A stretch of DNA of 64,000 nt from Candidatus Poribacteria bacterium (GCA_003635195.1 PYIY01000203.1:781-64780), one strand, 5' to 3'; shown: positions 15,523 to 64,000, numbered from the stretch's first letter. Program-made: numbers and translations. Notes: generated by a model from the sequence alone, not told the origin.

Positions 15523-16347
15523 TTAGTTTGCTTTAAGCCTGCCCCAGGTTGTCGCAAGTTTACCTTGCGCTTCTACTGCAGTAAACGTTGCTGCGATGCC
15601 ATTGTTCATAATATTCTTGACTTCTTCCTCTGTCAAACCGCGTTTCCAAAGGTTAAAGTCGTCCATCAGCCCGGTGAAAGGTCGCTTGTTGTCGATGTTA
15701 AAGCCGACACGTGCGCCTTGTCCCCAGTTGTCTGCGATCGGCGTGTCAAGGCGAGACTTTTCTTCACCGACCTTTTCACCGTTGATGTAGAGAACGGCTA
15801 ATCCGTCTGCGCGACTGTATGTGCCACCGTAATGTATCCATTCATTTGCCTTATTTTCACCAGCCCGGATATCAAATATCGTCCGCCCGGGGTTAGGTCC
15901 CCGATTCAGCCAACGATAGTTTCCGTCGCCCCGTGCCTCTGGGTGAACAAGCCAGGTGCCATCGGTTGCGCGGGCGTTGAAAAGTGCCATATCCGATACG
16001 GCTTCAACGTTAATCCACGCGAGAAGACTCATGCCTTCAGTGGGAATATCCTCGGCCTTAACATTGGGACCATCTAAATCGAGGAAGCTGCCGGCTGCGA
16101 AGTGGGCGGCTTTGCCGAATTTCCCATCATTGGATTGTGTGACATCGCCCTTAATCTCGCCATCATAGCCACGTCCAGACTTTTCAAGGACGGTATTTCC
16201 GTCGAAGTCCTCATAGTCGAAATACAGGACCAAATCCGCATCTAAAATCTGAGCGGATGCTTCTTGAATTTCGGCCATAAGCAAACAGAGCGTGCTTATC
16301 AGAAGTAAGCACATCAAACAAGCGGTTAGTATAGGATTTCGTTTCAT
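15523..16347 (-). CDS. secreted LamG/ConA-like protein, tail GKLATTWGRLKAN (tandem copy 1)
   Basis: Signal peptide. LamG-like LVLYFDYEDFDGNTVLEKSGRGYDGEI..GKFGKAAHF pattern. AAGGAGG RBS. Confidence 0.85.
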   Translation of the reverse strand: MKRNPILTACLMCLLLISTLCLLMAEIQEASAQILDADLVLYFDYEDFDGNTVLEKSGRGYDGEIKGDVTQSNDGKFGKAAHFAAGSFLDLDGPNVKAEDIPTEGMSLLAWINVEAVSDMALFNARATDGTWLVHPEARGDGNYRWLNRGPNPGRTIFDIRAGENKANEWIHYGGTYSRADGLAVLYINGEKVGEEKSRLDTPIADNWGQGARVGFNIDNKRPFTGLMDDFNLWKRGLTEEEVKNIMNNGIAATFTAVEAQGKLATTWGRLKAN

Positions 16348-16380
16348 CTTTTAAGGTCCTCCTTTAGATGAACCATTCTT

Positions 16381-17205
16381 TTACTTTGATGCCTTAAGTT
16401 TTCCCCAAGTCGTTGCGAGTTTGCCGCGTGCTTCCACAGCAAGAAACGCTTCGACACTATCGTTCATAATAGCATTGACTTCTTCTTCTGTCAAGCCACG
16501 TTTCCAGACGTTAAGTTCATCCATAAGTCCGGTGAAAGGTCGTTTGTTGTCGATGTTAAAGCCGACCCGTGCGCCCTGCCCCCAGTTGTCTGCGATCGGC
16601 GTGTCAAGGCGAGACTTTTCTTCACCGACCTTGTTGCCGTTGATGTAGAGGACAGCTAATTCGTCTGCGCGACTGTATGTGCCAGCGTAATGCTGCCATT
16701 TATTGGCTTCGTTTTTACCTGCCCGGATATCAAATATCGTCCTACCGGGATTAGGTCCCCGATTCAGCCAACGATAGTTTCCGTCGCCCCGTGCCTCTGG
16801 GTGAACAAGCCACGTGCCATCGGCTGCGCGGGCATTGAAAATTGCCATATCCGATATGGCTTCAACGTTAATCCATGCGACAACACTCATACCTTCAGTC
16901 GGAATGTCATCAGGGTCAACGTTGGCTCCATCTAAATCGAGAAAGCTGCCGGCTGCGAACAGACCGGCTTTGCCAAACTTTCCATCATCGGATTGTGTGA
17001 CCTTCCCATTAATCTCGCCATCGTAACCACGTCCAGATTTTTCAAGGACGGTACCACCCTTAAAATCTTCGTAATCAAAATACAGGACCAAATCCGGATC
17101 TAAAGCCTCAGCGGATGTGTCCTGCTTTTCTGCCATAAACAGACAGAGTGTGCCTATGAGAAATAAGCACATCAGATAAGACGTGAATATAAAGTTCCGT
17201 TTCAT
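16381..17205 (-). CDS. secreted LamG/ConA-like protein, tail GKLATTWGKLKASK (tandem copy 2)
   Basis: About 98% identical to copy 3 over the mature part. Its stop is exactly 858 bp from the stops of copies 1 and 3. Confidence 0.85.
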   Translation of the reverse strand: MKRNFIFTSYLMCLFLIGTLCLFMAEKQDTSAEALDPDLVLYFDYEDFKGGTVLEKSGRGYDGEINGKVTQSDDGKFGKAGLFAAGSFLDLDGANVDPDDIPTEGMSVVAWINVEAISDMAIFNARAADGTWLVHPEARGDGNYRWLNRGPNPGRTIFDIRAGKNEANKWQHYAGTYSRADELAVLYINGNKVGEEKSRLDTPIADNWGQGARVGFNIDNKRPFTGLMDELNVWKRGLTEEEVNAIMNDSVEAFLAVEARGKLATTWGKLKASK

Positions 17206-17238
17206 CTTTTAAGGTTCTCCTTTAGATAAACCATTCCT

Positions 17239-18078
17239 TTACTTTGATGCCTTAAGTTTTCCCCAAGTCGTTGCGAGTTTACCGTGTGCTTCCACAGCAA
17301 GAAAGGCTTCAACACTATCGTTCATAATAGCATTAACTTCTTCCTCTGTCAAGCCACGTTTCCAGACGTTAAGTTCATCCATAAGCCCGGTGAAAGGTCG
17401 TTTGTTGTCGATGTTAAAGCCGACCCGTGCGCCCTGCCCCCAGTTGTCTGCGATCGGCGTGTCAAGGCGAGACTTTTCTTCACCGACCTTGTTGCCATTG
17501 ATGTAGAGGACAGCTAATTCGTCTGCGCGGCTGTACGTGCCAGCGTAATGCTGCCATTTATTGGCTTCGTTTTTACCTGCCCGGATATCAAATATCGTCC
17601 TACCGGGGTTGGGCCCCCGATTCAGCCAACGATAATTTCCATCGCCACGGGCTTCGGGGTGTACAAGCCATGTGCCATCGGCTGCGCGGGCATTGAAAAT
17701 TGCCATATCCGATATGGCTTCAACGTTAATCCATGCGATGACACTCATGCCTTCGGTAGGAATGTCATCAGGGTCAACATTGGCTCCATCTAAATCGAGA
17801 AAGCTGCCGGCTGCGAACAGACCGGCTTTGCCAAACTTCCCATCATCGGATTGCGTGACCTTTCCATTAATCTCACCATCGTACCCGCGTCCGGATTTTT
17901 CAATGACGGTATCACCCTTGAATTCTTCATAATCGAAATATAGTACTAAATCCGGGTCTAAGGGTTCAGGTGATGCGAATTCTGTCGTATGTAGACAGAG
18001 CGCGCCTATCAGAAGTAAGCACACCAAATAAGGGGTGAGTTTACAATCCGATATTACAAATCTTAAGTTGCGTTTCAT
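17239..18078 (-). CDS. secreted LamG/ConA-like protein, tail GKLATTWGKLKASK (tandem copy 3)
   Basis: I chose the start at MKRNLRF (ATG 18078), behind AAGGAG. The ORF extends to 18117. Confidence 0.85.
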   Translation of the reverse strand: MKRNLRFVISDCKLTPYLVCLLLIGALCLHTTEFASPEPLDPDLVLYFDYEEFKGDTVIEKSGRGYDGEINGKVTQSDDGKFGKAGLFAAGSFLDLDGANVDPDDIPTEGMSVIAWINVEAISDMAIFNARAADGTWLVHPEARGDGNYRWLNRGPNPGRTIFDIRAGKNEANKWQHYAGTYSRADELAVLYINGNKVGEEKSRLDTPIADNWGQGARVGFNIDNKRPFTGLMDELNVWKRGLTEEEVNAIMNDSVEAFLAVEAHGKLATTWGKLKASK

Positions 18079-18270
18079 TTCAAAGTCTCCTTTGATTTTG
18101 ACGAACTGTTCGTTCACTTTTTTACAAACGACTACTCATATTAAAAGTTTACCACTTTTCCAGACGGGTCTGCAACGAAAAACGAAAATTTTCTTGATTT
18201 TAACTTCGTTTTACGGTAAACTGATTTAGAATATGGATGGAAAATTTAAGGTATCTAAAGGGAGCTCAGG

Positions 18271-18999: not shown

Positions 19000-19003
19000 T
19001 GTA

Positions 19004-19237: not shown

Positions 19238-19282
19238 AGAACAACATAAGGAGCATGCTACAGGTAGCACTATTATATAAAA

Positions 19283-20914
19283 ATGACAAAATACATTTTT
19301 GTGACAGGCGGCGTTATCTCAGGCATCGGCAAAGGCATCACAACGGCATCTCTTGGCAGATTGCTTATCAATCGCGGGTTCAAGGTGATTGTCGTCAAAA
19401 TTGATCCGTATCTCAACGTCGATGCGGGTGTGATGAATCCATTCCAACATGGTGAGGTTTTCGTCACCCGTGATGGCGCGGAAACCGATCTTGATCTTGG
19501 GAATTATGAGCGGTTTCTCGGCATCGATCTGAACAAATATTCTAACTTTACGACAGGTTCCGTCTATAAGGAAGTGATTGAGAAAGAGCGACGGGGGGAC
19601 TATCTCGGCGAAACGGTGCAGCTGATTCCACATATTACGGATGAGATCAAGCGCCGCATCTACCAGATCGGTGAGGATAATGAGGCTGAAATCGTCATTA
19701 CGGAAATAGGCGGAACTATCGGCGACTTTGAGATGCCGCCGTTCGTCGAAGCCATCCGACAAATGGCAGTTGAGGTCGGACGCGAGAATGCGATGTTCCT
19801 TCATGTGTCGCTCATTTATACTTTACCCAAGGGCGAAAGCAAGAGTAAACCGACACAGCACAGCATCCGCAAACTTCAAGAACTGGGGGTCCTACCAGAT
19901 GTCCTGCTCTGTCGGACGAGTCAGACGTTGGAGGAAGCCTTTCGTCGGAAAATCGCGCTCCTCTGCGGTATCTCTGAAGAATGTATTTTTGAAGGATTAG
20001 ACACAAAATGCGTTGATGAAATTCCTCTTAATTTTGAACGCCAAGGGATGGGACATCTCGTTTCAAAGAAGCTTGGACTTGAAGCACGCGCCCCCATGGA
20101 TGCCGAATGGTCGGCGATGGTCGAAAAGCTGAAAAACCCGAAACGACACGTCCGAGTTGCGATTGTCGGAAAATACACAACAGGCAACGATGCCTATATC
20201 AGTGTACAGGAAGCCCTCAAACACGGTGGGATTGCTAACGAAGCATCTGTTGAAATTGAGTGGATTGAAGCGGAGTCGCTCACGGAACATCCGAACCTTG
20301 ATTCCGTGTTTGAAGATATTGACGGTATCCTCGTCCCTGGTGGATTCGGCTATCGAGGGATTGAAGGGATGTTGGTTGCCGTGCAATATGCCCGTGAAAA
20401 TAGAATTCCGTATTTAGGGTTATGCCTCGGTATGCAGTGTCTCGTAATTGAGTTTGCTCGGCACGTGGCGAACCTTGAAAAGGCAAATAGCACAGAAGTA
20501 GATGAGAAAACACCTTATCCGGTTATAGACTTAATGCCTGAACAACGCTCAATAGCCGACCTCGGCGCAACAATGCGACTCGGACATTATCCATGTGTAC
20601 TTAAAGAAGATACCAAAAGTTATACCGCTTATCAGCAGCCTATTATTCTCGAACGACACCGTCATCGCTATGAATTAAATAATTTATATCGCTCGCAATT
20701 AGAATCGGCAGGGCTCTGCTTTAGCGGGTTGTCGCCGGATGAAAGTCTCGTCGAAATCGCTGAGGTAACGGATCATCCGTGGATGGTCGGTTCACAATTC
20801 CACCCTGAATTTCAATCGAAACCGCTGGCACCGCATCCGCTTTTCCGTGAATTCATCGCAGCGGTCCTTTCTTATCAGCTGAAAAATAAAGATATAGAGG
20901 GAGATAAAAAATAA
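19283..20914 (+). CDS. pyrG: CTP synthase
   Basis: MTKYIFVTGGVISGIGKGITTASLG and the GATase block GLCLGMQ. 543 aa. Confidence 0.97.
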   Translation: MTKYIFVTGGVISGIGKGITTASLGRLLINRGFKVIVVKIDPYLNVDAGVMNPFQHGEVFVTRDGAETDLDLGNYERFLGIDLNKYSNFTTGSVYKEVIEKERRGDYLGETVQLIPHITDEIKRRIYQIGEDNEAEIVITEIGGTIGDFEMPPFVEAIRQMAVEVGRENAMFLHVSLIYTLPKGESKSKPTQHSIRKLQELGVLPDVLLCRTSQTLEEAFRRKIALLCGISEECIFEGLDTKCVDEIPLNFERQGMGHLVSKKLGLEARAPMDAEWSAMVEKLKNPKRHVRVAIVGKYTTGNDAYISVQEALKHGGIANEASVEIEWIEAESLTEHPNLDSVFEDIDGILVPGGFGYRGIEGMLVAVQYARENRIPYLGLCLGMQCLVIEFARHVANLEKANSTEVDEKTPYPVIDLMPEQRSIADLGATMRLGHYPCVLKEDTKSYTAYQQPIILERHRHRYELNNLYRSQLESAGLCFSGLSPDESLVEIAEVTDHPWMVGSQFHPEFQSKPLAPHPLFREFIAAVLSYQLKNKDIEGDKK

Positions 20915-22179
20915 TGGCCAACGCAGCCCCTGTCCGTTCCCGAGCATGGTACGGAGATGAGGAACTGACTTTGAATTTTCCGACCAGTTGGGAAGTCGAA
21001 GTGTTGGGTCCTAAAGACGCGCCTGCGCTTTCTGATGCACAAATTGAACAGGCATTTGCTGAACCGATCGGCACGCCTCGTATGTCGGAACTCGCGAAGG
21101 GCAAAAGGAGTGCTGCTATTGTCGTTGACGACTTGAGTCGTCCGACGCCTGCGGCGAAAGTTATCCCGTTTATCCTGCGTGAGTTAGCATCGGGGGGTAT
21201 CCCTAAATCCGAAATTCGGTTCGTTTTCGGGGTCGGGGCGCATCGTCCCCTAAGAGACGAAGATATAATCAAAAAGATTGGTGCGGACATCGCCGCTGAA
21301 TATGAGGTATCCAACCATAACTTTATGAGCGGTGACCTACGTTCATTCGGCAGCCTTGAGAACGGCATGCCTATCTACCTCAATCGCGTTGTCGCTGATG
21401 CGGATTTCAAAATCTGTCTCGGTGGTATCTATCCTCACAGTTCCGTCGGTTTTAGTGGCGGTGCGAAGTTAATTGTCCCCGGTATCTCAGGCTTTACTAC
21501 CATGTTCTATTTCCATACATTTCCACCTGGCCGAGGTCCCGCAATAATTGAGGGAGAGAGTGATGAACCGGATCGTCGCGATTGTGCTGAATTAACGGCT
21601 GGCGTGTTAGGACTTGATATTATCGCCAATGTTGTGCTTAATAGTCGTCGTGAAATTTGTGGGTTGTTCGTGGGTAATTTTATAAAGGCGCATCGTAAAG
21701 GCGCGCATTTTGCAATGGATACCTACAGCACAGAGATACCAGAGACGAATCAAACAGCATCAGATCTGGTGGTGATTAACTGCTATCCGCTTGATGCTGA
21801 TGCTATCCAACTTGATAAAGCATTGGGGGCTTTAACCTATTTTGAAAACGCTTATACAATGGCACTCTACCCCGCGAGCGACAGTAGCTGCTACCACGGA
21901 CTGTTTGATCGGATTGATTATACGCGCTATCTTCGGCAGCGAGCGGAACAGGTGCCCCCTGAACTGCCCACACCGAAAATCGGGCGTCGCGGGCAACTGC
22001 ATGTCTGGTCTGAGTATTTTCTGGCAGATGATTTCTACAAGGAATATCCAGCCTCGCTACTCTTCCGCGACTTAGAACAACTGATTCAATTGTTCGCAGC
22101 GGAGCTGCCAGCACGTGCTAAAGTTACGATTCTACCTGTCGCCGGGACTCAGGTGCTAATACCGGCTGCTTCTGAATAA
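20914..22179 (+). CDS. LarA-like (DUF2088) nickel-pincer-dependent racemase/epimerase family protein 1
   Basis: EPIGTPRMSELAKGKRSAAIVVDDLSRPTP, GVGAHRP, YPHSSVGFSGGAKLIVPGI. These are the positions of LarA His108, His174 and Lys184. The ATG overlaps the pyrG TAA (TAATG). Confidence 0.75.
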   Translation: MANAAPVRSRAWYGDEELTLNFPTSWEVEVLGPKDAPALSDAQIEQAFAEPIGTPRMSELAKGKRSAAIVVDDLSRPTPAAKVIPFILRELASGGIPKSEIRFVFGVGAHRPLRDEDIIKKIGADIAAEYEVSNHNFMSGDLRSFGSLENGMPIYLNRVVADADFKICLGGIYPHSSVGFSGGAKLIVPGISGFTTMFYFHTFPPGRGPAIIEGESDEPDRRDCAELTAGVLGLDIIANVVLNSRREICGLFVGNFIKAHRKGAHFAMDTYSTEIPETNQTASDLVVINCYPLDADAIQLDKALGALTYFENAYTMALYPASDSSCYHGLFDRIDYTRYLRQRAEQVPPELPTPKIGRRGQLHVWSEYFLADDFYKEYPASLLFRDLEQLIQLFAAELPARAKVTILPVAGTQVLIPAASE

Positions 22180-22233
22180 AACAAGGTAATCTTTCCCTAT
22201 ATTCTTAAATCCGCGATCCAAAAATGGAGGGCA

Positions 22234-23496
22234 ATGATGAACGACACTGCTACAGTTTACTCTCGTGCTTGGTACGGGGATGAAGAACTGACTTTAAATT
22301 TTCCAACCGGCTGGGAAGTAGAGGTGCTTGGACCGAAAGACGCGCCCGTGCTTTCGGATACACAAATTGAACAGGCATTTGCCGAACCGATCGGCACACC
22401 CCGTATATCGGAACTCGCGAAAGCGAAAAAAAGTGCTGCTATCGTTGTTGATGACCTGAGCCGTCCGACCCCAGCAGCGAAGGTTATCCCCGTACTTCTG
22501 CGTGAATTAGCCGGCGCAGGGGTACCGAAGTCCGAAATCCGATTTGTTGTGGGTGGTGGTTCTCACCGACCCCTCACTGCTGAAGAGGTAGCGAAGAAGA
22601 TTGGGGCGGGTGTCGCTGCTGAATATGAGGCAACGAGCCACGACTTTATGAGCGGTGATCTGCGTGCCTTAGGAAATCTTAGTAACGGGATGCCTATTTA
22701 TCTCAATCGTGTCGTTGCTGATGCGGATTTCAAAATTTGTCTTGGCGGTATCTATCCACACGGGTCCGTCGGTTTCGGTGGCGGCGCGAAATTGGTCGTG
22801 CCGGGCATCGCCGGTTTCGCCACAATGTTCTATTTCCATACTTTCTCACCCGGACGCGGACACGCTGTTATAGAAAGAAAAGGTAGTGAACCGGATCATC
22901 GCGATTTCGCTGAGGAAGTAGCGGGTGTCCTCGGACTTGATGTAATTGTCAACACGGTACTCAACAGTCGCCGTGAAATCTGTGGGTTGTTCGTAGGTGA
23001 TTTTGTGCAGGCGCATCGTCAAGGCGCGCATTTCGCTTTAGACACTTATGGCACAGAGATACCGGAAACGAGTCGAAAAGAGACCGATCTGGTTGTCCTC
23101 AACTGCTATCCACTTGACAGCGATCCGATCCAAACGGGTAAAGCGTTGTGGGCGACGCATTATTTTGAGAAGGCCTATAAAATGGCACTCAACCCCGCGT
23201 CAGACGGTATCTGCTATCATGGGCTGTTTGAGGAGATTGATTATGCACGCTTCTCACAACAGAGGGCGGAGAGAACGCAATCTGAGCTCCCACCCCCACA
23301 ACTCGGAACGCAAGATCAACTGCACGTCTGGTCAGAACACTTTTTAGTGGATGACTTTTACAAGAAACACCCGGGTGCCCTCCTCTTTAGAGACCTCGAT
23401 CAGTTGATCGCTCTGTTCGCTGAGAAACTACCATCGCAGGCGAAAGTTGCTGTTCTGCCTTCCGCTGGAATTCAGGTGTTAGCACCGGAGAAATAG
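22234..23496 (+). CDS. LarA-like (DUF2088) protein 2, tandem paralog
   Basis: Same blocks as the first copy: DDLSRPTP, GGGSHRP, YPHGSVGFGGGAKLVVPGI. Confidence 0.75.
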   Translation: MMNDTATVYSRAWYGDEELTLNFPTGWEVEVLGPKDAPVLSDTQIEQAFAEPIGTPRISELAKAKKSAAIVVDDLSRPTPAAKVIPVLLRELAGAGVPKSEIRFVVGGGSHRPLTAEEVAKKIGAGVAAEYEATSHDFMSGDLRALGNLSNGMPIYLNRVVADADFKICLGGIYPHGSVGFGGGAKLVVPGIAGFATMFYFHTFSPGRGHAVIERKGSEPDHRDFAEEVAGVLGLDVIVNTVLNSRREICGLFVGDFVQAHRQGAHFALDTYGTEIPETSRKETDLVVLNCYPLDSDPIQTGKALWATHYFEKAYKMALNPASDGICYHGLFEEIDYARFSQQRAERTQSELPPPQLGTQDQLHVWSEHFLVDDFYKKHPGALLFRDLDQLIALFAEKLPSQAKVAVLPSAGIQVLAPEK

Positions 23497-25607: not shown

Positions 25608-26402
25608 TTATTGGGTTGCCTTCAATTTACCCCACGTAACAGCCAGTTTTCCGACGGCTTCGACATCCAAACTGACTGCCATCATATCCTTAATCTCGTT
25701 TTCCTCTAAGGCACGTGCCCAAAATGAGATTTCGTCAATGATACCGTCTGCTCCGTTGGTCAGCGCGATATACTGAACGGTTTCCCAACCGAATCTCGGT
25801 TTTTCGTGAAGTGCTGGAAAGCCTCCGCCAATCTTGCGGCTTGTTGCTTGCTCTTTACCATCAATATAGATAAATGGGGGTTCGCCGCCGAAATCCCACG
25901 TGACAGCACAATGGAACCATTCCTCTTTTTTGATGATACCTGTCGGGTCGAATTCGACATCTTGCCAGTCGCCGTCGTCTGCTGCTTCAAAATAGAACCC
26001 GAACTCTGCCGGTGTGATGTCTGGGTGTGCAGACCCTTTTCCTACGAAGAAGTAGATACCACCAAGACTCGCATCAAAAAGCCTGTAGTCGTCGTCATCT
26101 TTGCCATCCCAATCCGGTTTGAACCAGAACAGCAGACTTCCCGCTTCTGTAATAACTTTGGGTACTTCAAGATAGGTTTCCTTGCCTCTGAGGGAAATAC
26201 CAGCACCATATTTACCTTGGCCAGGAACCCATTTCGCTGCGCCACCAAATGTGCCATCCTTGCCGTTCCCTGTGCCATCAACTGCTTTATTGCCGCTGCC
26301 TTCACCAATCCACAGCAGGATATCTTTATCATTAGGGATGCCAGCAAACGCGGAAACGATGACAAATGTACTGATAAGTAAAACCAAATAAACTTGTTTC
26401 AT
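25608..26402 (-). CDS. secreted LamG-like protein, tail GKLAVTWGKLKATQ
   Basis: Signal peptide. LamG pattern GNKAVDGTGNGKDGTFGG..GKYGAGISL. Confidence 0.8.
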   Translation of the reverse strand: MKQVYLVLLISTFVIVSAFAGIPNDKDILLWIGEGSGNKAVDGTGNGKDGTFGGAAKWVPGQGKYGAGISLRGKETYLEVPKVITEAGSLLFWFKPDWDGKDDDDYRLFDASLGGIYFFVGKGSAHPDITPAEFGFYFEAADDGDWQDVEFDPTGIIKKEEWFHCAVTWDFGGEPPFIYIDGKEQATSRKIGGGFPALHEKPRFGWETVQYIALTNGADGIIDEISFWARALEENEIKDMMAVSLDVEAVGKLAVTWGKLKATQ

Positions 26403-28592: not shown

Positions 28593-29810
28593 CTATTTCG
28601 GGACTTCCCAGATGGATCTTGATGCGAAAATTGTTAGGCGTAATTCTTCGTCAAAGATTTCGTAGATAGGTGTTTTTCCGCTCAATTCCTGGCTTTCGTT
28701 TAGGATGATACCAACGCCTTCACCTCGACGTTCTAAGAAGTGGCGACGAACCACCTGTTTTCTCATGTCATCGTTCAGTATGATTTCAGAAAGTAATCGG
28801 GCGAGGAGTTCATTACGGGTGGCTTGGCTGTAGCGTAGGTTATCTACCGTCACCGTATTTGCCAATGCCCCTGGTGAATAAAGTTCGATCCGATTGTCAA
28901 ACATAAAAAACCGAATTTTGGAACCTGTTTTTGAATAATCTCTATGCACAACGGCGTTAACAATTGCCTCAAAAATGGCGCGCATACTGTATTGTGGTAG
29001 ATCGACTCTGCCAATATCTTTCCGTGCAGCAACGGCGTTATATCTTTTGGCGAATCGCATCGTTTGAATGATCTGTTGATCTAATGGTCCCGTAAAATCC
29101 TGAGAATCAATCTGGTGGTCGGCATCCTTTTCTTCTCCGCTATATACAACCGCTTGAATAAAACTGTTGTAAAGGTAGTCATCGGGTTTCTCGTAACACA
29201 TCAGTACACCGGCTACAGAAGCGCGGATTTCCTGACCTTCCTTGACGAGCAAACGTCTTTTAAGCAGTAAATCGTCCACTTCATCTTCAGTCGCGCTTTC
29301 TGTGATAAATCGCTGATAGAGATTTTTTCTTAATGTGTCTTTATCTGTGTTTGGGACGAACTGTTCATCGAAAGCGATGATGCGAGCTTGTGAGCGGGTT
29401 TGGAACAAGCGCGCTAACTGTTCAGTTGGCATCTCGCGTTTACTACTTCCCCGACGAATGAAGTAACCGTCAGCGGTTTTGTGAACGAACAGGCTCCTCG
29501 GCACCTCTATTTTTAACAGGTTTTTATTATCAATCCGCAGTTTTTCTGTAAAAATGAGAACGATTGGATCAATACTGTCCTGACATATTTCGACGACAGT
29601 TTTTTCGGCTTTGTCCAGTTCTTGTCGGTCAACTCCGACGATTTCCGCGTTGTCGTCAATGCCGATTAATATAACGCCACCTCTCGCGTTGGCAAAGGCA
29701 GCGATTTCGTCAGCGAGGCTGTTTCTGTGCGGGAGCTCTCTTTTGAATTCGATCGTTGCATCTTCGCCGAGATGTATTTTTTCAATGAGTTCGGTTATGC
29801 TCTCAAACAT
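28593..29810 (-). CDS. AlbA_2 (Schlafen-like) plus HATPase_c_4 ATP-binding protein
   Basis: N-terminus EDATIEFKRELP..LADEIAAFANARGGVILIGIDD. C-terminus IFEAIVNAVVHRDYS..IELYSPG. Confidence 0.75.
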   Translation of the reverse strand: MFESITELIEKIHLGEDATIEFKRELPHRNSLADEIAAFANARGGVILIGIDDNAEIVGVDRQELDKAEKTVVEICQDSIDPIVLIFTEKLRIDNKNLLKIEVPRSLFVHKTADGYFIRRGSSKREMPTEQLARLFQTRSQARIIAFDEQFVPNTDKDTLRKNLYQRFITESATEDEVDDLLLKRRLLVKEGQEIRASVAGVLMCYEKPDDYLYNSFIQAVVYSGEEKDADHQIDSQDFTGPLDQQIIQTMRFAKRYNAVAARKDIGRVDLPQYSMRAIFEAIVNAVVHRDYSKTGSKIRFFMFDNRIELYSPGALANTVTVDNLRYSQATRNELLARLLSEIILNDDMRKQVVRRHFLERRGEGVGIILNESQELSGKTPIYEIFDEELRLTIFASRSIWEVPK

Positions 29811-30121: not shown

Positions 30122-30847
30122 CTACAATCGCTGCTTGATTCTTCCCCAAGTGGTGGCGAGTTTGTCTGAGGCAGAAACTGCTTGAGGTTTACCAGCCGTT
30201 TCGCCTTCACCGTCTCCCATTTCAATGTCATCGATATAATTTGTCAGAGCGGTGGGGTGGTCCCAACCGAAGAAGATCCAGCTTAGACTCGGATTCACGC
30301 CGCCTTTGCCGCCCTCGCCTCTAAAACCGAAATCATCGGCGACCTGTTCGTCATCGACGTAAAAGTCATAAGTTCTATCTTTAAAGTCAAGCACGATACG
30401 GAGATGATGCCATTCACCGAATTTTCCCTGCGCCACTTGTTGTCCTGCAGTGCCGTCGAGTGCGTGGATTGTGGCATCCGGCTTAATGTTAAATACGGCA
30501 GCCCCACCCCACTTGAGGGCATCTCCACCGATATAAAACAGCATTGTGCCTGCGCCCTTTTCCCGTTGTGTGAATAATGAAGTGTACTGAATTCCATCAT
30601 GCGTACCGTCAAAACTTCTGGTGACCATTGTGTTTTCTGTGACCAGAATACTTTTGCCTGTGTCCCCGCGCGTTACCTCGCTTCCAATTTGGCAAGTTTT
30701 TTGGTTCATTGCGGTTTTCCAATCATCTTGCCCAGCGATGTCACCATCTTTGAAGTTGTCAAAATTCTCACTGTACCACACGTCGCCAAATGCATTGAAC
30801 GCCAAAAACAAGAGTCCGAGACTGAATACCAAACTTCGCTTTAACAT
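30122..30847 (-). CDS. secreted protein of unassigned (probably jelly-roll) fold, tail DKLATTWGRIKQRL
   Basis: Signal peptide MLKRSLVFSLGLLFLAFNAFG. 241 aa. The body is unlike the tandem LamG copies. Confidence 0.75.
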   Translation of the reverse strand: MLKRSLVFSLGLLFLAFNAFGDVWYSENFDNFKDGDIAGQDDWKTAMNQKTCQIGSEVTRGDTGKSILVTENTMVTRSFDGTHDGIQYTSLFTQREKGAGTMLFYIGGDALKWGGAAVFNIKPDATIHALDGTAGQQVAQGKFGEWHHLRIVLDFKDRTYDFYVDDEQVADDFGFRGEGGKGGVNPSLSWIFFGWDHPTALTNYIDDIEMGDGEGETAGKPQAVSASDKLATTWGRIKQRL

Positions 30848-45098: not shown

Positions 45099-45779
45099 AT
45101 GAGAACAGTTATCACGGTGCCGAAATTAGCGGCATTAAGTCTCGTTGTGCTTTTTGGTATGGTACTTTCGCTGCCAACGTATGCAGGCACCCAATTGTGG
45201 GATTTTGAAAAGAAAACCGATGACTGGAAAGTTGCCAATGGGAATTGGGAAGTCGCAAAAGGGGTCTACCACGTTGACAAGGGTGGACAAGCGGAACACT
45301 CTCTCGTTGGTGAAGAGGACTGGGACAACTACACCATTGAGGCGAAAGTTCGCTTAGATAATCACCATTGAGCGGGTATTGTTTTCCGCGCCGAAAGCGA
45401 GATGGAATACTACGTCTACTATCTCAACGTCCCAAATAACAAAACGGAGCTTTGGCGACACAAAGATGGTGCCTGGAATGCCCGCGACAATATCGCGCAA
45501 ATTCCAGCTGTCGAAAAGGTCCAGATAAAGAACGGCGAATGGATTGATATGAAGGTCGTCGTTGAGGGGAGTGAATTTCAGATCCATCTCAACGGTAAAC
45601 TTCAGGGTGAACATAAAGATGATGCCTACAAAACCGGCCAAGTCGGTGTGTGGGCATGGGAAACCGAGGCGAGTTTTGATGATTTCACTGTTATGGGTGA
45701 TAATATCAAGGATACCCTTGCTGTTGAGCCGAATAACAAGCTCGCAACGACATGGGGTCGCCTCAAACGGGTTTACTAA
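45099..45779 (+). pseudogene. DUF1080/LamG-like secreted protein interrupted by one in-frame TGA (45369-45371); tail NKLATTWGRLKRVY
   Basis: ORFs 45099-45371 and 45402-45779 are in the same frame. ..VRLDNHH*AGIVFRA.. aligns with ..VRLDEGNWAGVVYRA.. of the paralog, so the TGA sits at the Trp codon. Confidence 0.7.
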
Positions 45780-45868
45780 TTTTGACTAAGGTTTAGCCTC
45801 AGAAGTCTTCTACGTGAAAACCGCGTCGAAGACTTTTGAGGCAATTTTCTATAAAAAGGAGCGGTATT

Positions 45869-46534
45869 ATGAAATATCTGTTTTCAACTGTTGTAAGTTG
45901 TTGCCTCGTGCTCGTGGCATCTTTTGCTTTTGCAGGTGAACAGACGTGGTCATTTGATTCAGATGCGGACGATTGGGAAGTTGCTAATGGGAATTGGAGT
46001 GTTGAGGACGGCACTTATAAACTCGCTAAAGGCGGTAGAGCCGAACACTCCCTCGTCGGTGATGCCGAATGGGAAGATTACACCGTTGAAGCGAAAGTTC
46101 GACTTGACGAGGGCAACTGGGCAGGGGTTGTTTATCGCGCCCAAAGCGAGAAGGAATATTATGTTTACTATCTCAACGTTCCAAATAACAAGACTGAGCT
46201 TTGGCGACATAAGGAAAGTGCGTGGGACTCTCGCGACAAGATAGGTGAACTTCAAGGTGCCAACATCAAAATTGCGAATGGCGAGTGGTTTGACATGCGC
46301 ATCGTCGTGGCGGGCAATTCAATGAAACTCTGGATTAACGGTGAAGACCAAGGCGAACTTAAGGATGAAACCGATGCCGGATACCCCGCTGGGCAGATCG
46401 GTGTCTGGGCGTGGGAGACTGCTGCGAGCTTTGATGATGTCAAGGTCGCTGGAGATGCTATCGTCAACCTTACGCCAGTGGAACCGTTGGATAAATTGGC
46501 TACCACATGGGGTCGCCTCAAACAGCGTTTTTAG
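45869..46534 (+). CDS. DUF1080/LamG-like secreted protein, tail DKLATTWGRLKQRF
   Basis: AAAGGAG RBS before ATG 45869. Signal peptide. DDWEVANGNWSVEDG..EDYTVEAKVRL pattern. Confidence 0.8.
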   Translation: MKYLFSTVVSCCLVLVASFAFAGEQTWSFDSDADDWEVANGNWSVEDGTYKLAKGGRAEHSLVGDAEWEDYTVEAKVRLDEGNWAGVVYRAQSEKEYYVYYLNVPNNKTELWRHKESAWDSRDKIGELQGANIKIANGEWFDMRIVVAGNSMKLWINGEDQGELKDETDAGYPAGQIGVWAWETAASFDDVKVAGDAIVNLTPVEPLDKLATTWGRLKQRF

Positions 46535-55152: not shown

Positions 55153-55929
55153 CTAATAATTTTCCTGCTTGAGAGAACCCCAAGTTACAGCAAGTTTACC
55201 CGCCGGTTCTACTGCAACACCTAAAGCGTTCAAGCCGTTATTCATTAGGTCAGCGATATCTGCATCGGTCAAAGGTGCGTGGAAAAGACCGACCTCGTCC
55301 ATGACCCCTGTGAACCAGTTGCCGCTACCGTCCCAAACGCCACAGCCACCGATATTTACATTAAAATTGGATCTGCCGTGATTTATCCAGTTTCCTTCTT
55401 TCGTTGTCGCGGTGCCGTCAATGTAGACCTTCGTGAAGGTTCGGGTGGCGACAGCGGCGATGTGGTGCCACTCACCGGGTGGATGTTCGTAGGGATTATT
55501 ATTACTCCCGGCTGTGGGAGTCCATAGTGCAACGGTAGTAGGATTAATAAAACCGAATTCCGGGGAGTCGTTCTGACCTATCAACCCCACGCGATTGGCG
55601 GTGATATTCCCGGGTTTCACCCAAGCAACGACTGTGAATTCACGCACCCCGTTGAGGAGTCTTCTGTTGGTATTCACGCAGTTGCTTGCCCCGTCAAAGC
55701 CTAAGGCACCGCCAAATCGACCATCTACCCAGATCGGTGCGTTGACAATCGTACCGTGATTGTTATTTCCGGACGAGTCCATCGCCACGTTTCCTGCGCC
55801 ATCGTCGAACAGCCAAATACCAACAACATCTTTCTGGTTGATTTCGGCATCACTGCTATTCACAGCGACGAGACTCAAAGCCATCAGTCCCAGACTGAAC
55901 AGGACAACTGTTAAAGTATTAAATTTCAT
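55153..55929 (-). CDS. secreted LamG-like protein, tail GKLAVTWGSLKQENY
   Basis: Signal peptide MKFNTLTVVLFSLGLMALSL. DSSGNNNHGTIVNAPIWVDGRFGGALGFDG LamG pattern. Confidence 0.8.
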   Translation of the reverse strand: MKFNTLTVVLFSLGLMALSLVAVNSSDAEINQKDVVGIWLFDDGAGNVAMDSSGNNNHGTIVNAPIWVDGRFGGALGFDGASNCVNTNRRLLNGVREFTVVAWVKPGNITANRVGLIGQNDSPEFGFINPTTVALWTPTAGSNNNPYEHPPGEWHHIAAVATRTFTKVYIDGTATTKEGNWINHGRSNFNVNIGGCGVWDGSGNWFTGVMDEVGLFHAPLTDADIADLMNNGLNALGVAVEPAGKLAVTWGSLKQENY

Positions 55930-56333: not shown

Positions 56334-56368
56334 GGCAAACTGATGACTGACAACTGATAATTGACATC
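56334..56368. repeat. heptanucleotide tandem repeat
   Basis: GGCAAAC TGATGAC TGACAAC TGATAAT TGACATC. Confidence 0.45.
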
Positions 56369-56438
56369 TTCCGGTTTTCTTGATAAACTTAAAGACATAA
56401 CCTTAAACCCTATTTTGTTGAAAAGGAAGAACACCACA

Positions 56439-58346
56439 ATGAAAACGGCACTGTTTTCTATCTTTTTGATACTGTTTGTCCTCTTAATTGGATATCTGCC
56501 AAATACCTATGCCCAAGACTACACACGATGGAAATTACCGGAAGGTGCGATAGCGCGCCTTGGTAAAGGTCCAGTAAGGGATATTGCATTTTATCCAGAT
56601 GGCACGCATTTCGCTGTCGCCAGTTCCATCGGTATTTGGTTATATAATACTGATACTTATCAAGAGGCGGCATTATTAACAGGGCATACGGGATATTTTG
56701 AAGTTGGAGCTTTAACCATCAGTTCAGATGGCCGCACGTTGGCCGCAGCGAGTGGTAATACAATCCGTCTGTGGGATACTGCAACCAGTGAACTCGAAAA
56801 AACACTTACAGCAGACAGCAGAGAAGGCATCTCCAGTTTAGCGTTTAGCTCTGATGGACAAACACTCGCAAGTGCAAGTTGGGATGAAGTTATCCGTCTG
56901 TGGGATATTAACACTGGTGAACTCCGAAAAACTCTCAGAGGACATACGGATCCTAACCCCAATTTTGCAATTGGGCCCAGTGTGGTATTCAGGTTTGATG
57001 ATCAAACGCTGGTAAGTGGAGGTGAGGACGGAACTATCCGTCTGTGGGATCCAGGAACAGGTGAACTCCGAAATACAATAAAAGGACATACAGATAAAGT
57101 CACCAGTGTAGTGTTCAGTCCTGACGGTCAGACGTTGGTAAGTGGAGGTGGGGACGGAATGATCCACCTCTGGAATCCTATAACCGGTGAACTCCAGAAA
57201 ACTCTCAGAGGACATCACAGGGATATCAACAACATAGTGTTCAGCCCTGATGGACAAACACTGGTGAGCGCGAGTATGGATGGGAGCGTCCGTCTATGGA
57301 ATGCTACAACCGGCAAATTCCGCCACCGTAAGACTTTCAGGGATGCCAGAGGCTTTATTGGAAATGTAGTCTTCAGTGCTGATGGACAAACACTCGCTTG
57401 CGGTAGTACGGAAGCAATCTGGTTGTGGGACGCTGCCTCAGGCGAACCTCAAACGACAATTACTGGACATACGTGGTACCTATACAGTGTAGTGTTCAGT
57501 CCTGATGGACAGACGATCGCTTGCGGAAGTGGGGATGGTAGCCATCTGTGGGATGCCGAAACTCATGAACTTCGGAGAACCATTCTGGAACCAAGTTTGA
57601 ATGTCATCAGTGTGGCTTTTAGTCCCGATGGACAGACCTTGGCGAGTGGTGGCTCGTCCGACATCCATCTGTGGAATCCTGCAACTGGTGAACTCCGAGC
57701 AGAACTTGAAGGGCACGGTGCTTATATCCGCAGCGTTGCATTCAGTCCTGACGGTCAAATGTTAGCAAGTGGCGCGGATGACAAAACCGTTCGCCTATGG
57801 AATGCTACGACTGGTGAACTTCAAAAAACAATTACTGAACATACTGGTGCTGTCTGGAGTGTTGCATTCAGTTCTGATGGTCAAACGTTAGCAACTGGTG
57901 GGAACGACGAAACCATCCGCCTCTGGGACCGCGCAACCGGTGAACTCCAGAAAACAATCACTGGATATACGGGATGGGTCTTCAGTTTGGCATTTAGTCC
58001 TAATGGACAGACCTTGGCGAGTGGGAATAGAACAGGTATTATCTCCTTATGGGATGCCGTAACCGGAGCACACCGCGAAACGCTCACAGGACACACATAT
58101 ACAGTTGCGGACATCACATTCAGTCCTGATGGACAGACCTTGGCGAGTGGAAGTCAGGACGGAACTATTCACTTATGGGATACCACAACGGGCGAACTTA
58201 AAAAAACATTCAGAGGACACATGAGGGGTGTTGATGGCGTAGCGTTTAGTCCTGACGGTCAAACGCTGGCAAGCGGCAGTAGTGATGGAACCATACTGCT
58301 GTGGGATCCGACATTCATGACCAGCGTTCCACCCGATCAAAAATAA
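56439..58346 (+). CDS. WD40 repeat protein (~14 blades) with N-terminal signal/anchor
   Basis: Start at MKTALFSIFLILFVLLIGYL. It carries ~42-aa units of GHT..V.SVAFSPDGQTLASGS.DGTIRLWD..TGEL.KTL. Confidence 0.9.
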   Translation: MKTALFSIFLILFVLLIGYLPNTYAQDYTRWKLPEGAIARLGKGPVRDIAFYPDGTHFAVASSIGIWLYNTDTYQEAALLTGHTGYFEVGALTISSDGRTLAAASGNTIRLWDTATSELEKTLTADSREGISSLAFSSDGQTLASASWDEVIRLWDINTGELRKTLRGHTDPNPNFAIGPSVVFRFDDQTLVSGGEDGTIRLWDPGTGELRNTIKGHTDKVTSVVFSPDGQTLVSGGGDGMIHLWNPITGELQKTLRGHHRDINNIVFSPDGQTLVSASMDGSVRLWNATTGKFRHRKTFRDARGFIGNVVFSADGQTLACGSTEAIWLWDAASGEPQTTITGHTWYLYSVVFSPDGQTIACGSGDGSHLWDAETHELRRTILEPSLNVISVAFSPDGQTLASGGSSDIHLWNPATGELRAELEGHGAYIRSVAFSPDGQMLASGADDKTVRLWNATTGELQKTITEHTGAVWSVAFSSDGQTLATGGNDETIRLWDRATGELQKTITGYTGWVFSLAFSPNGQTLASGNRTGIISLWDAVTGAHRETLTGHTYTVADITFSPDGQTLASGSQDGTIHLWDTTTGELKKTFRGHMRGVDGVAFSPDGQTLASGSSDGTILLWDPTFMTSVPPDQK

Positions 58347-61138: not shown

Positions 61139-61173
61139 TTGCTGACAGCCAACTGTTGACAACTGATAACTCA
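61139..61173. repeat. heptanucleotide tandem repeat
   Basis: TTGCTGA CAGCCAA CTGTTGA CAACTGA TAACTCA. It shares CTGATAAC with the complement of 7847-7867. Confidence 0.45.
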
Positions 61174-61181
61174 AAAAAGAC

Positions 61182-61210
61182 TTGCATCTTTAAGGTCGTT
61201 ATGCTATAAT
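61182..61210 (+). promoter_or_regulatory. sigma-70 promoter with extended -10
   Basis: TTGCAT (61182-61187), a 17-nt spacer, then TG-C-TATAAT (61202-61210). Confidence 0.65.
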
Positions 61211-61314
61211 ACCTGTAGTCAGATACAAGTGTCAAGTAATTTTTCACTTTATTATAGCAAGTTTTGGCTTGCGAGTTTCGCCAAGAATTGAGAATCGACT
61301 CAGGATAAAAAATA

Positions 61315-62451
61315 ATGGAGCACTATAGTCGTTTTACGGACCCGAAATTGCCTGCTATCTATAAAAAAGTCAAGGCAGAAGAGCGGCTCTCTTTTGAGGA
61401 AGGGGTCGCACTTTATGAAAGCCCGGATATTACCGGTGTTGGGTTCATTGCTAACCATGTCCGTGAACGTTTAAATGGGAACGTTGCCTACTATAATATC
61501 AATCAACACATCGACTATTCAAATGTTTGTATCCTTCATGCCCGGTGCCACTTCTGTGCTTTTGCACGAAAAAACATGCAAACCGAGGGCGCGTGGGAAA
61601 TGAGCGTTGATGAATTTTTGGATAAAGCGATGTATTCCATAGAAAACGGATGCACCGAAATTCACAGTGTCGGCGGATTGCACCCTAAACTGCCGTTTGA
61701 TTATTACCTCGATATTATCCGTGGTCTCAAAGAGCGGATGCCACAGGTACACCTCAAATTCTTCACAGCTGTCGAAATTCACCACTTCTCACGCATCTTT
61801 AAAATGTCGGTGGAGGCAGTTTTAATGGCACTGCGTGAAGCAGGTTTAGACTCCTTACCGGGTGGCGGTGCTGAGATTTTTGCGGAGGCGACGCGTGAGA
61901 AAATTTGTCCAGGAAAACTCAGTGCTGACGGTTGGTTAGAGATTCACGAGATAGCCCATCGCCTCGGTATCTCTACAAACGCCACGATGCTGTATGGACA
62001 TCTTGAGACGAACGAAGATCGGGTAGACCATCTGATACGACTCCGGGAACAACAAGATAAATCTGGTGGCTTTGTGACGTTTATTCCGCTCGCTTTCCAC
62101 CCTGCTAATACGCGTATGGCATATCTGCCTTCAACAACGGGATTAACAGATCTCAGGAACATCGCGGTCGCACGCTTGATGCTTGATAACGTCCCGCATA
62201 TTAAAGTCTATTGGATTATGACCGGTTTGAAAACTGCCCAAGTTGCGCTCCGTTTTGGTGCTGACGACATTGATGGGACCGTGACCGAGGAAAAAATTAC
62301 ACACATGGCAGGTGCGGATACGCCGGAATCAGTTTCCGTTTCGTCGTTAACGCACCTCATTGAGGAAGCCGGCTTCGTTCCTGTTGAGCGCGATACGCTG
62401 TACAATGAAATCATTCGAGAGGGGGATCGGTGGTACAGAAAAGCCGCTTAA
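61315..62451 (+). CDS. radical-SAM menaquinone (futalosine pathway) enzyme, MqnE/MqnC family
   Basis: CofH/MqnE-like N-terminus and cluster motif NVCILHARCHFCAF. 378 aa. It is adjacent to mqnA. Confidence 0.75.
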   Translation: MEHYSRFTDPKLPAIYKKVKAEERLSFEEGVALYESPDITGVGFIANHVRERLNGNVAYYNINQHIDYSNVCILHARCHFCAFARKNMQTEGAWEMSVDEFLDKAMYSIENGCTEIHSVGGLHPKLPFDYYLDIIRGLKERMPQVHLKFFTAVEIHHFSRIFKMSVEAVLMALREAGLDSLPGGGAEIFAEATREKICPGKLSADGWLEIHEIAHRLGISTNATMLYGHLETNEDRVDHLIRLREQQDKSGGFVTFIPLAFHPANTRMAYLPSTTGLTDLRNIAVARLMLDNVPHIKVYWIMTGLKTAQVALRFGADDIDGTVTEEKITHMAGADTPESVSVSSLTHLIEEAGFVPVERDTLYNEIIREGDRWYRKAA

Positions 62452-63269
62452 GGGTAGGCGCGGTTTCGTTTCTGAACACCAAACCGCTCATCTATCCCCT
62501 GTTAAACAAGGAAATCCAAACGGATATTGCGCTCAGTGTTAATGTACCGAGCCGTGTTGCTGCGCTTTTAAGTGAAGGTGAACTTGATGTCGGACTGATT
62601 CCGATTATCGAATATTTTCGCGCGAATCCTTCTGACCCGAATTACTGTATTCTACCTGACATATCAATTGCATCGCACGGGAGCGTCCGAAGCATCCAAC
62701 TGTTCAGTCGTGTGCCAATTCAAGACATTCGACGCGTTGCCCTTGATACCAGTTCACGCACCTCCGTCGCGCTCTTAAAGGTCCTGCTCGCTGAAAGATA
62801 TGGTGTTTCACCCGCGTTCACAACATGTGCCCCGACAGTAATTCCAAGCACAGCACTTCAAAATCGTCAGTATCCACCTTTTGAGGCGGTCCTCTTGATT
62901 GGAGACCCCGCACTCAGACACCTCGGTTCAACGGAATATAGTGTTGATCTCGGTGAGGCGTGGTATAAGTTAACGGGGTTGCCGTTCGTCTATGCCTGTT
63001 GGGTGGCAAGAGAAGAGGCGTGCCTCGGGGATTTAACGCAGGTATTGCTGCAATCAAAAGAACGTGGGGTCGCACAAATTCCAGAGATCGCACGGATTGA
63101 GGCGCAGAAGTTAGGTTTACCTGAAACACTTTGCCTCGACTATCTGGAAAATCGTATCAAATATGACCTTGACGTATCTGCAATTGATGGTATTGAACTC
63201 TTTTATAAGTATGCTGTAAAAAACGATCTTGCGCCGCCATGCCGTTCTCTTACTTTTAAATCCTGCTGA
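62430..63269 (+). CDS. mqnA: chorismate dehydratase (futalosine pathway)
   Basis: LRVGAVSFLNTKPLIYPL start and GLPFVYACW block. GTG start overlaps the previous gene by 22 nt. Confidence 0.8.
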   Translation: MVQKSRLRVGAVSFLNTKPLIYPLLNKEIQTDIALSVNVPSRVAALLSEGELDVGLIPIIEYFRANPSDPNYCILPDISIASHGSVRSIQLFSRVPIQDIRRVALDTSSRTSVALLKVLLAERYGVSPAFTTCAPTVIPSTALQNRQYPPFEAVLLIGDPALRHLGSTEYSVDLGEAWYKLTGLPFVYACWVAREEACLGDLTQVLLQSKERGVAQIPEIARIEAQKLGLPETLCLDYLENRIKYDLDVSAIDGIELFYKYAVKNDLAPPCRSLTFKSC

Positions 63270-63272
63270 AAG

Positions 63273-63782
63273 GTGTGGAAGATGGAAACTGTTGATAAAT
63301 CCACTGATAATATTGAGTTTGAAAAGCAGTTTGAGGACTATCTGAAAAGTTGTGGACTCCGTTTAACACAAAAGCGATTGGATGTTTTAAACCAAGTCTT
63401 CGACTATCCGGGCCATTTCCAAACAGAAGACCTTTTGGTTCAGATGCGTCGAAACGGCTACTTAGTCTCGCGACCGACGATCTATCGAACGCTCCCTCTG
63501 CTTGTGCAAAGTGGGTTGTTAACAGAATTTATTGACGCGCAGAAAAACACCCGCTATGAGAGCATCCATTCGTTGCGGGAACATGCACACCTTATCTGTC
63601 TACGGTGCAATCAGATTGTTGAGTTTAAAGAGCCGGGGATTGATGACTTACAAAAGGCGGTGTGTGAAGCGCACAACTTTAAAGCCGTGCGCTTCCGTAA
63701 TGAGATCATCGGTTATTGTGCGGAATGCCAAGCGGAGTTAGAGCCAAAAACATCTGATGAAGATGATGGAACTACTGCTTAA
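63273..63782 (+). CDS. Fur-family metalloregulator
   Basis: LRLTQKRLDVL..RPTIYRTL winged helix. HAHLICLRC and CAEC metal sites. Confidence 0.85.
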   Translation: MWKMETVDKSTDNIEFEKQFEDYLKSCGLRLTQKRLDVLNQVFDYPGHFQTEDLLVQMRRNGYLVSRPTIYRTLPLLVQSGLLTEFIDAQKNTRYESIHSLREHAHLICLRCNQIVEFKEPGIDDLQKAVCEAHNFKAVRFRNEIIGYCAECQAELEPKTSDEDDGTTA

Positions 63783-64000
63783 GCTGTGCCCACGTTGTGG
63801 TGAGTAGCCCTTCAGGATTCACGTCCGTAGCCCCTGCTTCGGCATTCTCGTAATCTGCGTCTGTCGGTTCATAGTCCAAATCACTTGACCAGCAGAAAAC
63901 GTCGTATTGCGTCTGGTTCGAGCTCTGTCGTGTCCATATCATCATGACGTTTTCCCCGTCTTGTAATGTGTTGACCGTGCCACCATCCTTTCCAAAATCG
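63772..64000 (-). CDS. 3' end of a further tail-bearing protein (..VNPEGLLTTTWAQLKQ*), 5' part off-window
   Basis: My own translation of the minus strand gives an open frame from 64000 to the TAG at 63772-63774. The ORF is absent from the track because it has no long Met-initiated segment. It overlaps the Fur-gene 3' end by 11 nt. Confidence 0.6.
   Translation of the reverse strand, partial: DFGKDGGTVNTLQDGENVMMIWTRQSSNQTQYDVFCWSSDLDYEPTDADYENAEAGATDVNPEGLLTTTWAQLKQ

Follow-up and report, generated by a model that had tools for sequence, protein, structure and literature searches.

A short peptide tail is shared by the C-termini of nine proteins encoded in a 64,000-nucleotide stretch of the genome of a Candidatus Poribacteria bacterium (GCA_003635195.1 PYIY01000203.1:781-64780; "the window" hereafter, at its whole length). 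This tag is unnamed and undescribed, is modular, lies strictly near the C-terminus, and is carried by Sec-exported proteins with unrelated bodies. Judged by sequence, it is homologous to a conserved, disordered linker found just upstream of the T9SS (type IX secretion system) type-A, FlgD-Ig-like C-terminal domain (CTD) in proteins of the same phylum, and its probable role is that of a minimal tag for sorting or attachment. Among sponge symbionts, Poribacteria are dominant and uncultivated; the tag would place a large share of their exported lectin-like proteins under one address label. Its tie to the linker further makes it possible to ask which machinery deals with CTD proteins in a phylum where a T9SS is reportedly lacking, whether the linker rather than the CTD is the determinant of processing or anchoring, and which proteins decorate the host-facing surface of the symbiont.

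A modular C-terminal tail on exported proteins

An earlier note on the window, made from its sequence, had listed nine shared C-terminal tails ending 1-4 residues before the stop, and a six-frame translation bore this out: the pattern TW[GAS]x[LIVM][KR] matched exactly nine times, at the positions given by that note, with a stop codon 1-4 residues past 9/9 copies. A degenerate DNA pattern encoding KLA[TV]TWGx[LI]K matched the window (G+C 47%) eight times, against 0.00 matches expected from 100 shuffles. The full tag spans ~20 residues and reads [LF][AP]V[ED][PA]xxKLA[TV]TWGx[LI]K, after which come 1-5 further residues, polar or basic in nature. It is carried by 9 of roughly sixty window genes, eight of them complete and the ninth partial. 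The neighbours are ordinary housekeeping genes (PolA, TrpRS, UbiD, CTP synthase, ABC and TRAP transporters, Fur), so that the tail genes are scattered along the chromosome rather than gathered in one island.

Next, we evaluated the distribution of the tail outside the window. A scan of the DNA pattern against one genome per GTDB species returned at least 120 loci, and the titles of the 120 loci listed comprised 109 Candidatus or uncultured Poribacteria, 10 "uncultured bacterium" and 1 Deltaproteobacteria contig. Six-frame translation of these loci yielded 169 copies of the core motif, 163 of which end 1-5 residues before a stop codon. Consistently, when 1.84 billion representative proteins were searched with a profile built from the nine tails of the window, 408 of them matched at E<=1e-3, and the motif ended 1-5 residues from the C-terminus in 132/147 of the listed matches in which it was located; the few "internal" cases look like read-through. 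Both counts confirm the C-terminal bias of the tail. Signal-peptide-like N-termini, reported in the earlier note for the complete window proteins and seen there again, were also detected in 148 of the 156 complete tail open reading frames (ORFs) of the related loci, most of which encode 203-297 aa (all calls were made with a hydrophobicity heuristic, not SignalP). Besides the seed copies, the related loci held about one more tail gene per 12 kb.

Across the related loci, conservation of the tail is far above that of the bodies. The logo of these tails, [LTF][AP]-V-[ED]-[PA]-x-x-K-L-A-[TV]-T-W-G-x-[LI]-K, is wider than the search pattern required, with V at position -10 kept in 169/175 copies and P/A at -8 in 163/175; the V-E-x residues, which the earlier note had taken for a linker before the motif, are instead part of the motif itself. 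There is almost no variation at Gly (+1), at Thr (-1), at either Lys or in the V-E-P block upstream, and Trp is invariant across the 175 copies, although the search pattern itself demanded Trp. Between motif and stop lie 1-5 residues, most often 3, among which R, Q, S and K are abundant; R, Q or K ends 100/175 tails and an aromatic residue 31/175. Every synonymous codon is used at the conserved residues (172 instances), indicating that selection acts on the peptide, as had been suggested from two window copies. An explanation at the mRNA level or through ribosome arrest was rejected, since Trp and stop are not a constant distance apart and codon choice is scrambled.

The bodies to which the tail is attached are diverse. 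Among the eight complete window proteins, Pfam assigned five to Laminin_G_3 and two to 3keto-disac_hyd/DUF1080, while one had no significant match. The idea that the window bodies represent different folds therefore failed, in that all assignable ones belong to the ConA-like lectin/glucanase clan and two are unassigned, yet it held once the related loci were included. There, bodies stripped of the tail form 32 BLAST clusters, with LamG, DUF1080, F5/8 type C, CBM9, DUF3108-like, Kelch, PD40 and ankyrin (622 aa) types alongside several without Pfam match, and the PD40 family carries a variant tail, VSPSAEKQTTLWGRLKQ. The tag is thus carried by unrelated bodies, in agreement with the earlier note.

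Existing resources do not name this tail. No Pfam or NCBIfam model covered it in hmmscan searches with eight whole window proteins, or with eight isolated tails against NCBIfam; the tail profile gave chance matches only in the PDB, and exact-protein look-ups of two window proteins returned no match. Homolog searches with 48-aa tail-region queries recovered mere short fragments of 42-86 aa. Tail proteins from Candidatus Poribacteria are named just "LamG domain-containing protein" or "hypothetical protein" by NCBI, and the tag offers a simple sequence rule or hidden Markov model (HMM) for annotating them. A literature search with the motif string gave no relevant match, nor did one with "PNPFNPET", and a search combining Poribacteria with sorting or T9SS terms returned Kamke et al. 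2014 alone.

Taxonomically, the consensus in its exact form marks out metagenome-assembled genomes (MAGs) of Candidatus Poribacteria, and variant tails probably extend to related or other lineages. The sole named non-Poribacterial title among the loci listed (L092, JAFDHL010000343.1, 3.7 kb, from a "Deltaproteobacteria" MAG) has the tail on a 20-codon ORF and may be a mis-binned or decayed fragment. A scan of viral contigs gave three uninformative matches, in one of which, the IMG/VR predicted viral contig L121, an ORF ends in the tail PKLATTWGHLKSGK (300-329, plus strand), 3 residues before its stop.

Relationship to the linker of T9SS-like proteins

The search for CTDs started from the signature "NPFNP", which was found once in the related loci, in locus L079. 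The 20 residues upstream of the signature in this CTD protein are PFAVNPTSLTLTTLGEVKTT, and L079 also holds the short form of the tail. A homolog search with the L079 C-terminus returned 500 proteins bearing FlgD_ig or Por_Secre_tail domains, several of which are named [quoted passage not shown]; TIGR04183-like domains have been reported from Poribacteria previously (PMC3909097). Among the 99 Poribacteria-like CTD proteins with enough upstream sequence, 69 displayed the full motif directly before ALLQNFPNPFNPETW. This long-form linker, A-V-E-P-x-G-[LK]-x-[VL]-T-T-[LW]-G-x-[VI]-K-R-T, has the same residues and spacing as the short tail, with mostly Leu at the position of the short-tail Trp and Trp in some cases, e.g., PVEPAGKQMVTWGEVKKTELYQNFPNPF in P0390. 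Alignment of short tails to pre-CTD segments with hhalign gave a probability of 97.5% and an E-value of 6.4e-12, with 19 columns in register, and an HMM of the short tails picked out 64/120 real long forms versus 86/2400 shuffled ones.

The short tail ends close to where the CTD of a long form begins. Specifically, matches to TIGR04183 and PF18962 begin at "NFPNPF", which lies downstream of the motif by a few residues, and the short tail stops 1-5 residues past a Lys that lies 6 residues before QNFPNPFNPETW, the start of the TIGR04183 match. Hence the earlier view of the tail as an unrecognised signal holds in so far as no Pfam or NCBIfam model covers it, and has to be given up in so far as the tail is not unrelated to known signals. 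The finding that would have counted against the earlier note, that the tail maps to the start of an already described sorting domain, comes close to what we observed: the tail abuts the TIGR04183/PF18962 match without overlapping it. As a stand-alone variant of the T9SS-like linker, the tail is not categorically new. Both forms can also be seen in locus L124, where a LamG protein ending in FAVEPTDKLTTTWGKVKRGL is followed by four same-strand FG-GAP proteins whose ends contain VTTLGKVKQTALLQNFPNPFNPETW and terminate in KMLILK. A coding remnant of a CTD was found downstream of 0/161 short tails, which argues that these are not truncated or read-through genes, and a read-through or split CTD behind the short tails was rejected on the same count.

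Predicted structures place both forms of the segment outside folded domains. In the AlphaFold2 (AF2) model of the LamG protein H (55153..55929, minus strand; signal peptide; tail VAVEPAGKLAVTWGSLKQENY at 55156-55218), based on an 81-sequence alignment, the LamG sandwich has a predicted local distance difference test (pLDDT) score >90, and tail residues 240-258 score <50, with a low-confidence helix at residues 246-256. Similarly, in the model of the long form P0324, the Ig-like CTD reaches a pLDDT of 86-98, and the linker motif remains at ~50 (below 50-55) without secondary structure. Among PDB entries, the P0324 CTD model matches the PorU and PorZ CTDs, FlgD and the CTD of a T9SS substrate. 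These models predict the tag to be a flexible appendage outside the lectin fold and, given that it is found on unrelated folds, an appended peptide that must act in trans. The earlier note had seen neither a transmembrane (TM) helix nor a basic cluster after the motif. The former stands, since the top 10-residue Kyte-Doolittle mean in any tail is 1.44 (average 0.38); the latter needs qualification, because a weak basic bias does follow the motif, with R as the commonest residue and a mean net charge of +0.6.

We also scanned Joint Genome Institute (JGI) metagenomes for the CTD alone, which gave 79 loci. Short-tail ORFs (~255 aa) were present in 10/79 of these CTD-selected loci, at G+C contents of 36%-64% and with the variant tails KLSVTWG, KLSTTWG and KAATTWG. 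Overall, 18 ORF ends matched in the ten loci, ~17 of them convincingly, against a chance expectation of about one by a rough estimate. Most of the PNPFNPET-type CTDs in these metagenomes are preceded by another, generic sequence, [IL]PxxSxLLQNYP, and a full tail-like linker was found in only 6.

Proposed recognition of the tail and competing explanations

Given that a disordered segment is so conserved in both short and long forms, we infer that a protein must read it. We propose, at about an even chance of being right, that the tail is a CTD-less, Trp-optimised version of the linker motif AVEPxG[LK]x[VA]TT[LW]Gx[VIL]K, which joins passenger domain and CTD in other Poribacterial proteins, and that it is recognised in trans by a putative envelope sorting or attachment pathway of CTD cargo. 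Short-tail proteins would first be exported by Sec via a cleavable signal peptide and fold in the periplasm, leaving the C-terminal peptide exposed. This peptide would then be bound in trans by the linker-recognising component of the CTD-cargo pathway, which would be a C-terminal peptidase/sortase of the PorU kind, a shuttle or an anchoring receptor; sorting would finally bring the small lectin-like protein to the cell envelope or surface, where it would be attached or docked. Attachment might follow the removal of the last few residues, or might depend on mimicry of the CTD-cleaved C-terminus of long-form cargo, which the short-tail end, 1-5 residues after the Lys, would resemble once the CTD is removed. 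A single reader for both classes, with short-tail proteins as the CTD-less class, would be the simplest model, and the invariant Trp (Leu in most long forms) may compensate for the absent domain. What we infer, as opposed to observe, is that such a component exists and what it is, whether cleavage or attachment takes place, and where the proteins end up. There is precedent for the use of such a linker: in P. gingivalis, the sortase-like peptidase PorU cuts the linker that precedes the CTD, and the C-terminus so created is transferred by PorU to A-LPS, an anionic lipopolysaccharide (PMC10202324).

A stronger proposition is that this ~17-residue peptide, devoid of TM segment and folded domain, would by itself be a sufficient signal for envelope or surface sorting and attachment in a diderm, used by a large share of the exported proteins and read by putative T9SS-related or T9SS-replacing machinery. 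We regard this as doubtful, although a genuine possibility. If true, the tail would be the smallest known outer-envelope sorting tag, possibly used hundreds of times per genome, and would provide a handle for discovery of the machinery.

Several observations weigh against a pathway shared with CTD cargo. The motif is absent from most metagenome PNPFNPET-type CTDs (about 80/88), and hence is not a general part of T9SS recognition. In the T9SS that have been characterised, secretion depends on motifs D and E at the end of the CTD and not on the linker (PMC10202324), and the crossing of the outer membrane by a CTD-less short-tail protein is hard to account for. No PorU-like T/E/D/N|G/A/S site was seen after the final Lys. 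At the level of machinery, no Por/T9SS structural genes were reported in Poribacterial single-cell genomes (Kamke et al. 2014; PMC3909097), which makes the CTD pathway itself hypothetical in this phylum, and our conserved-neighbour analysis of the tail loci found no general partner, peptidase or translocon. The recurrent neighbours of tail genes (PhyH, GFO/IDH, FG-GAP/ASPIC, TPR, ECF-sigma fusions and DUF6785/DUF6784 membrane proteins) either belong to families common in Poribacteria or reflect orthologous synteny.

Comparison with known sorting systems places the tail nearest to T9SS type A, with which it shares Sec signal peptides, adhesin- or lectin-like passengers and a C-terminal signal, in addition to the homology with the linker before the CTD in Poribacterial proteins, where both forms occur side by side. 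Unlike the 70-100 residues of a type A CTD, however, the tail has ~20 residues, lacks the Ig-like domain and the secretion-mediating motifs B, D and E, matches neither TIGR04183 nor PF18962, and is unstructured in AF2; moreover, no type A machinery is known in Poribacteria (PMC3909097). The tail also resembles the LPXTG/sortase, PEP-CTERM/exosortase, GlyGly-CTERM/rhombosortase and MYXO-CTERM/myxosortase systems in being lineage-restricted, in having one short C-terminal signature shared by many unrelated cargo proteins, and in the basic bias at its end. It differs from these in having no TM segment after the motif, where only 1-5 residues follow, and in matching no NCBIfam CTERM model, and the lack of a hydrophobic TM segment makes a membrane-embedded sorting protease unlikely. 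A further parallel is with signals at the extreme C-terminus that soluble receptors read, such as PTS1 and the TPR protein Pex5, or the YxF end of outer-membrane proteins (OMPs) and the PDZ domain of DegS: the tail, too, is a short C-terminal peptide without structure and is presumably recognised in trans. In those signals the free carboxylate is read at a fixed distance, whereas 1-5 variable residues follow the tail motif. Finally, unlike the beta-signal of OMPs, the tail end is mostly non-aromatic, and the bodies are soluble lectin or propeller folds rather than beta-barrels.

Rather than an element of the CTD pathway, the tail could be an independent short linear motif for docking, by which small lectin-like proteins would be held, non-covalently, on a scaffold in the periplasm or outer membrane, for example a secreted TPR or beta-propeller protein, with no processing and with the similarity to the pre-CTD linker reflecting common descent only. 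The flexibility of the tail in AF2 models fits such a role, and Poribacteria have expanded TPR and WD40 families whose members bear signal peptides or TM helices (PMC3909097). A 615-aa TPR gene (46575-48422) follows the DUF1080 pair both in the window and in two related MAGs, although synteny alone speaks for this protein as a partner and the case is weak, and FG-GAP/ASPIC-like and TPR genes adjoin tail genes of at least four body families. These neighbour associations are nevertheless largely orthologous synteny in loci chosen for their tails, and plain docking would not demand a place within 5 residues of the C-terminus, where almost all copies lie. The WD40 protein of the window (56361-58346, plus strand), suggested as a receptor in the earlier note, has a signal anchor and 12 matched WD40 repeats (Pfam) and ends in LLWDPTFMTSVPPDQK. 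This end (TSVPPDQK) resembles the first half of the linker motif, and Poribacterial WD40 relatives commonly go on into the full motif and a T9SS-like CTD. WD40 proteins thus look like cargo rather than receptors, contradicting the suggestion, and the window gene may be a shortened cargo gene; it lies 20 nt from a convergent TrpRS gene. Overall, we consider simple docking rather unlikely.

It is unlikely, too, that the tail acts as an amphipathic helix, with a Leu/Trp/Leu face flanked by Lys serving as a peripheral anchor to a membrane leaflet or lipopolysaccharide, as in some periplasmic and cytoplasmic proteins. Trp with flanking Lys or Arg is typical of interfacial peptides, and the low-confidence helix predicted in protein H together with a helical hydrophobic moment of ~0.40 (mean, ~13 residues) at a mean hydrophobicity of 0.34 would be compatible with such an anchor. 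Yet ~11 residues at most could be helical, and the near-invariance of Gly, Thr, both Lys and V-E-P is not what lipid binding selects for and argues for recognition by a protein. In the long forms, moreover, the same segment is a linker that has Leu at the Trp position and leads into a folded domain.

By analogy with OMP C-termini and DegS, the tail might instead be a regulatory or quality-control tag, read by a periplasmic protease or sensor that would couple protein abundance to signalling through extracytoplasmic function (ECF) sigma factors. The associations that bring this to mind are proteins of ~980 aa (N-terminal ECF sigma, TM, BNR-like repeats) flanking same-strand arrays of 2-6 tail genes in loci L060, L100, L106, L066 and L116; the arrays hold several body families (PD40, LamG-like, Kelch), and the adjacency may merely reflect their transcriptional control. 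In the metagenome locus L132, two ECF-sigma fusions (3464-5401 and 6451-8313, both on the plus strand) end in LPTRWGGLKTTTKEDKK and LPKNWGEIKTKD, respectively, which puts tail-like peptides on membrane-tethered sensor proteins as well; the latter protein has Sigma70 and Kelch matches in Pfam, the former a likeness to Kelch/ECF-fusion ORFs by BLAST only. The variable distance to the carboxylate, a polar or basic rather than hydrophobic or aromatic end, and the constitutive presence of the tag on a very large number of proteins make this explanation very unlikely.

That the tails are non-functional remnants after loss of the CTD, or a structural part of the passenger fold, is highly improbable: although the short tail ends where a CTD would begin and the window WD40 protein ends in an apparent half motif, the tail by far exceeds the bodies in conservation and has scrambled codons, its Trp is invariant in 175 copies (in a search that required Trp) versus mostly Leu in long forms, 0/161 copies have a CTD remnant downstream, and the tag sits on unrelated folds and is disordered in AF2.

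Tail genes of the window and their neighbours

Three of the tail genes in the window form a tandem triplication on the minus strand (15523-18117). LamG (Laminin_G_3) protein A (15523..16347) has a signal peptide and the tail TAVEAQGKLATTWGRLKAN at 15526-15582, and its tandem paralogs are LamG protein B (16381..17205; tail LAVEARGKLATTWGKLKASK at 16384-16443) and LamG protein C (17239..18078, with a likely ATG at 18078 in an ORF that reaches 18117; tail at 17242-17301). Over the greater part of their sequences B and C are nearly identical, pointing to a recent duplication or to gene conversion. The remaining minus-strand genes include the divergent LamG protein D (25608..26402; signal peptide; tail LDVEAVGKLAVTWGKLKATQ at 25611-25670) and protein E (30122..30847; signal peptide; tail QAVSASDKLATTWGRIKQRL at 30125-30184), for which Pfam gave no significant match (weak Sialidase-like CBM). 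At the end of the window, the 3' end of a further minus-strand gene (63772..64000; tail TDVNPEGLLTTTWAQLKQ at 63775-63828) runs off the sequence; its full-length relative P0181 has 233 aa and a signal peptide. Interspersed with the tail genes are two neighbouring Lar_N (lactate-racemase-like) paralogs, together with a Schlafen AlbA_2/HATPase_c_4 protein (20914-23496, plus strand; 28593-29810, minus strand).

The DUF1080 (3keto-disac_hyd) pair is encoded on the plus strand. Gene F (45099..45779; tail LAVEPNNKLATTWGRLKRVY at 45717-45776) had been listed in the earlier note as starting at 45402; its true start is 45099, with a signal peptide of its own and an in-frame TGA at 45369-45371. The full-length gene has 226 codons, and its ortholog in L080 is 93% identical. 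The TGA replaces a conserved Trp codon, with Trp at this position in the paralog, and gene F is either a pseudogene or affected by a sequencing error. The adjacent DUF1080 protein G (45866..46534, ATG at 45866) has a signal peptide and the tail TPVEPLDKLATTWGRLKQRF at 46472-46531.

Among the related loci, secreted FG-GAP/ASPIC-like proteins of ~560 aa, often together with a TPR protein of ~430 aa, adjoin the tail genes in L019, L028, L057, L072, L077, L090, L070, L089, L097, L066 and L114, and much of this adjacency is orthologous synteny. A polytopic membrane protein of 642 aa (DUF6785 and DUF6784) is encoded 1-2 genes from tail genes in L043 (2623-4551), L048 (3664-5592), L103 and L112, with two copies in L043, and likewise near tail genes in the distant metagenome contig L140 (1461-3383; 39% identity).

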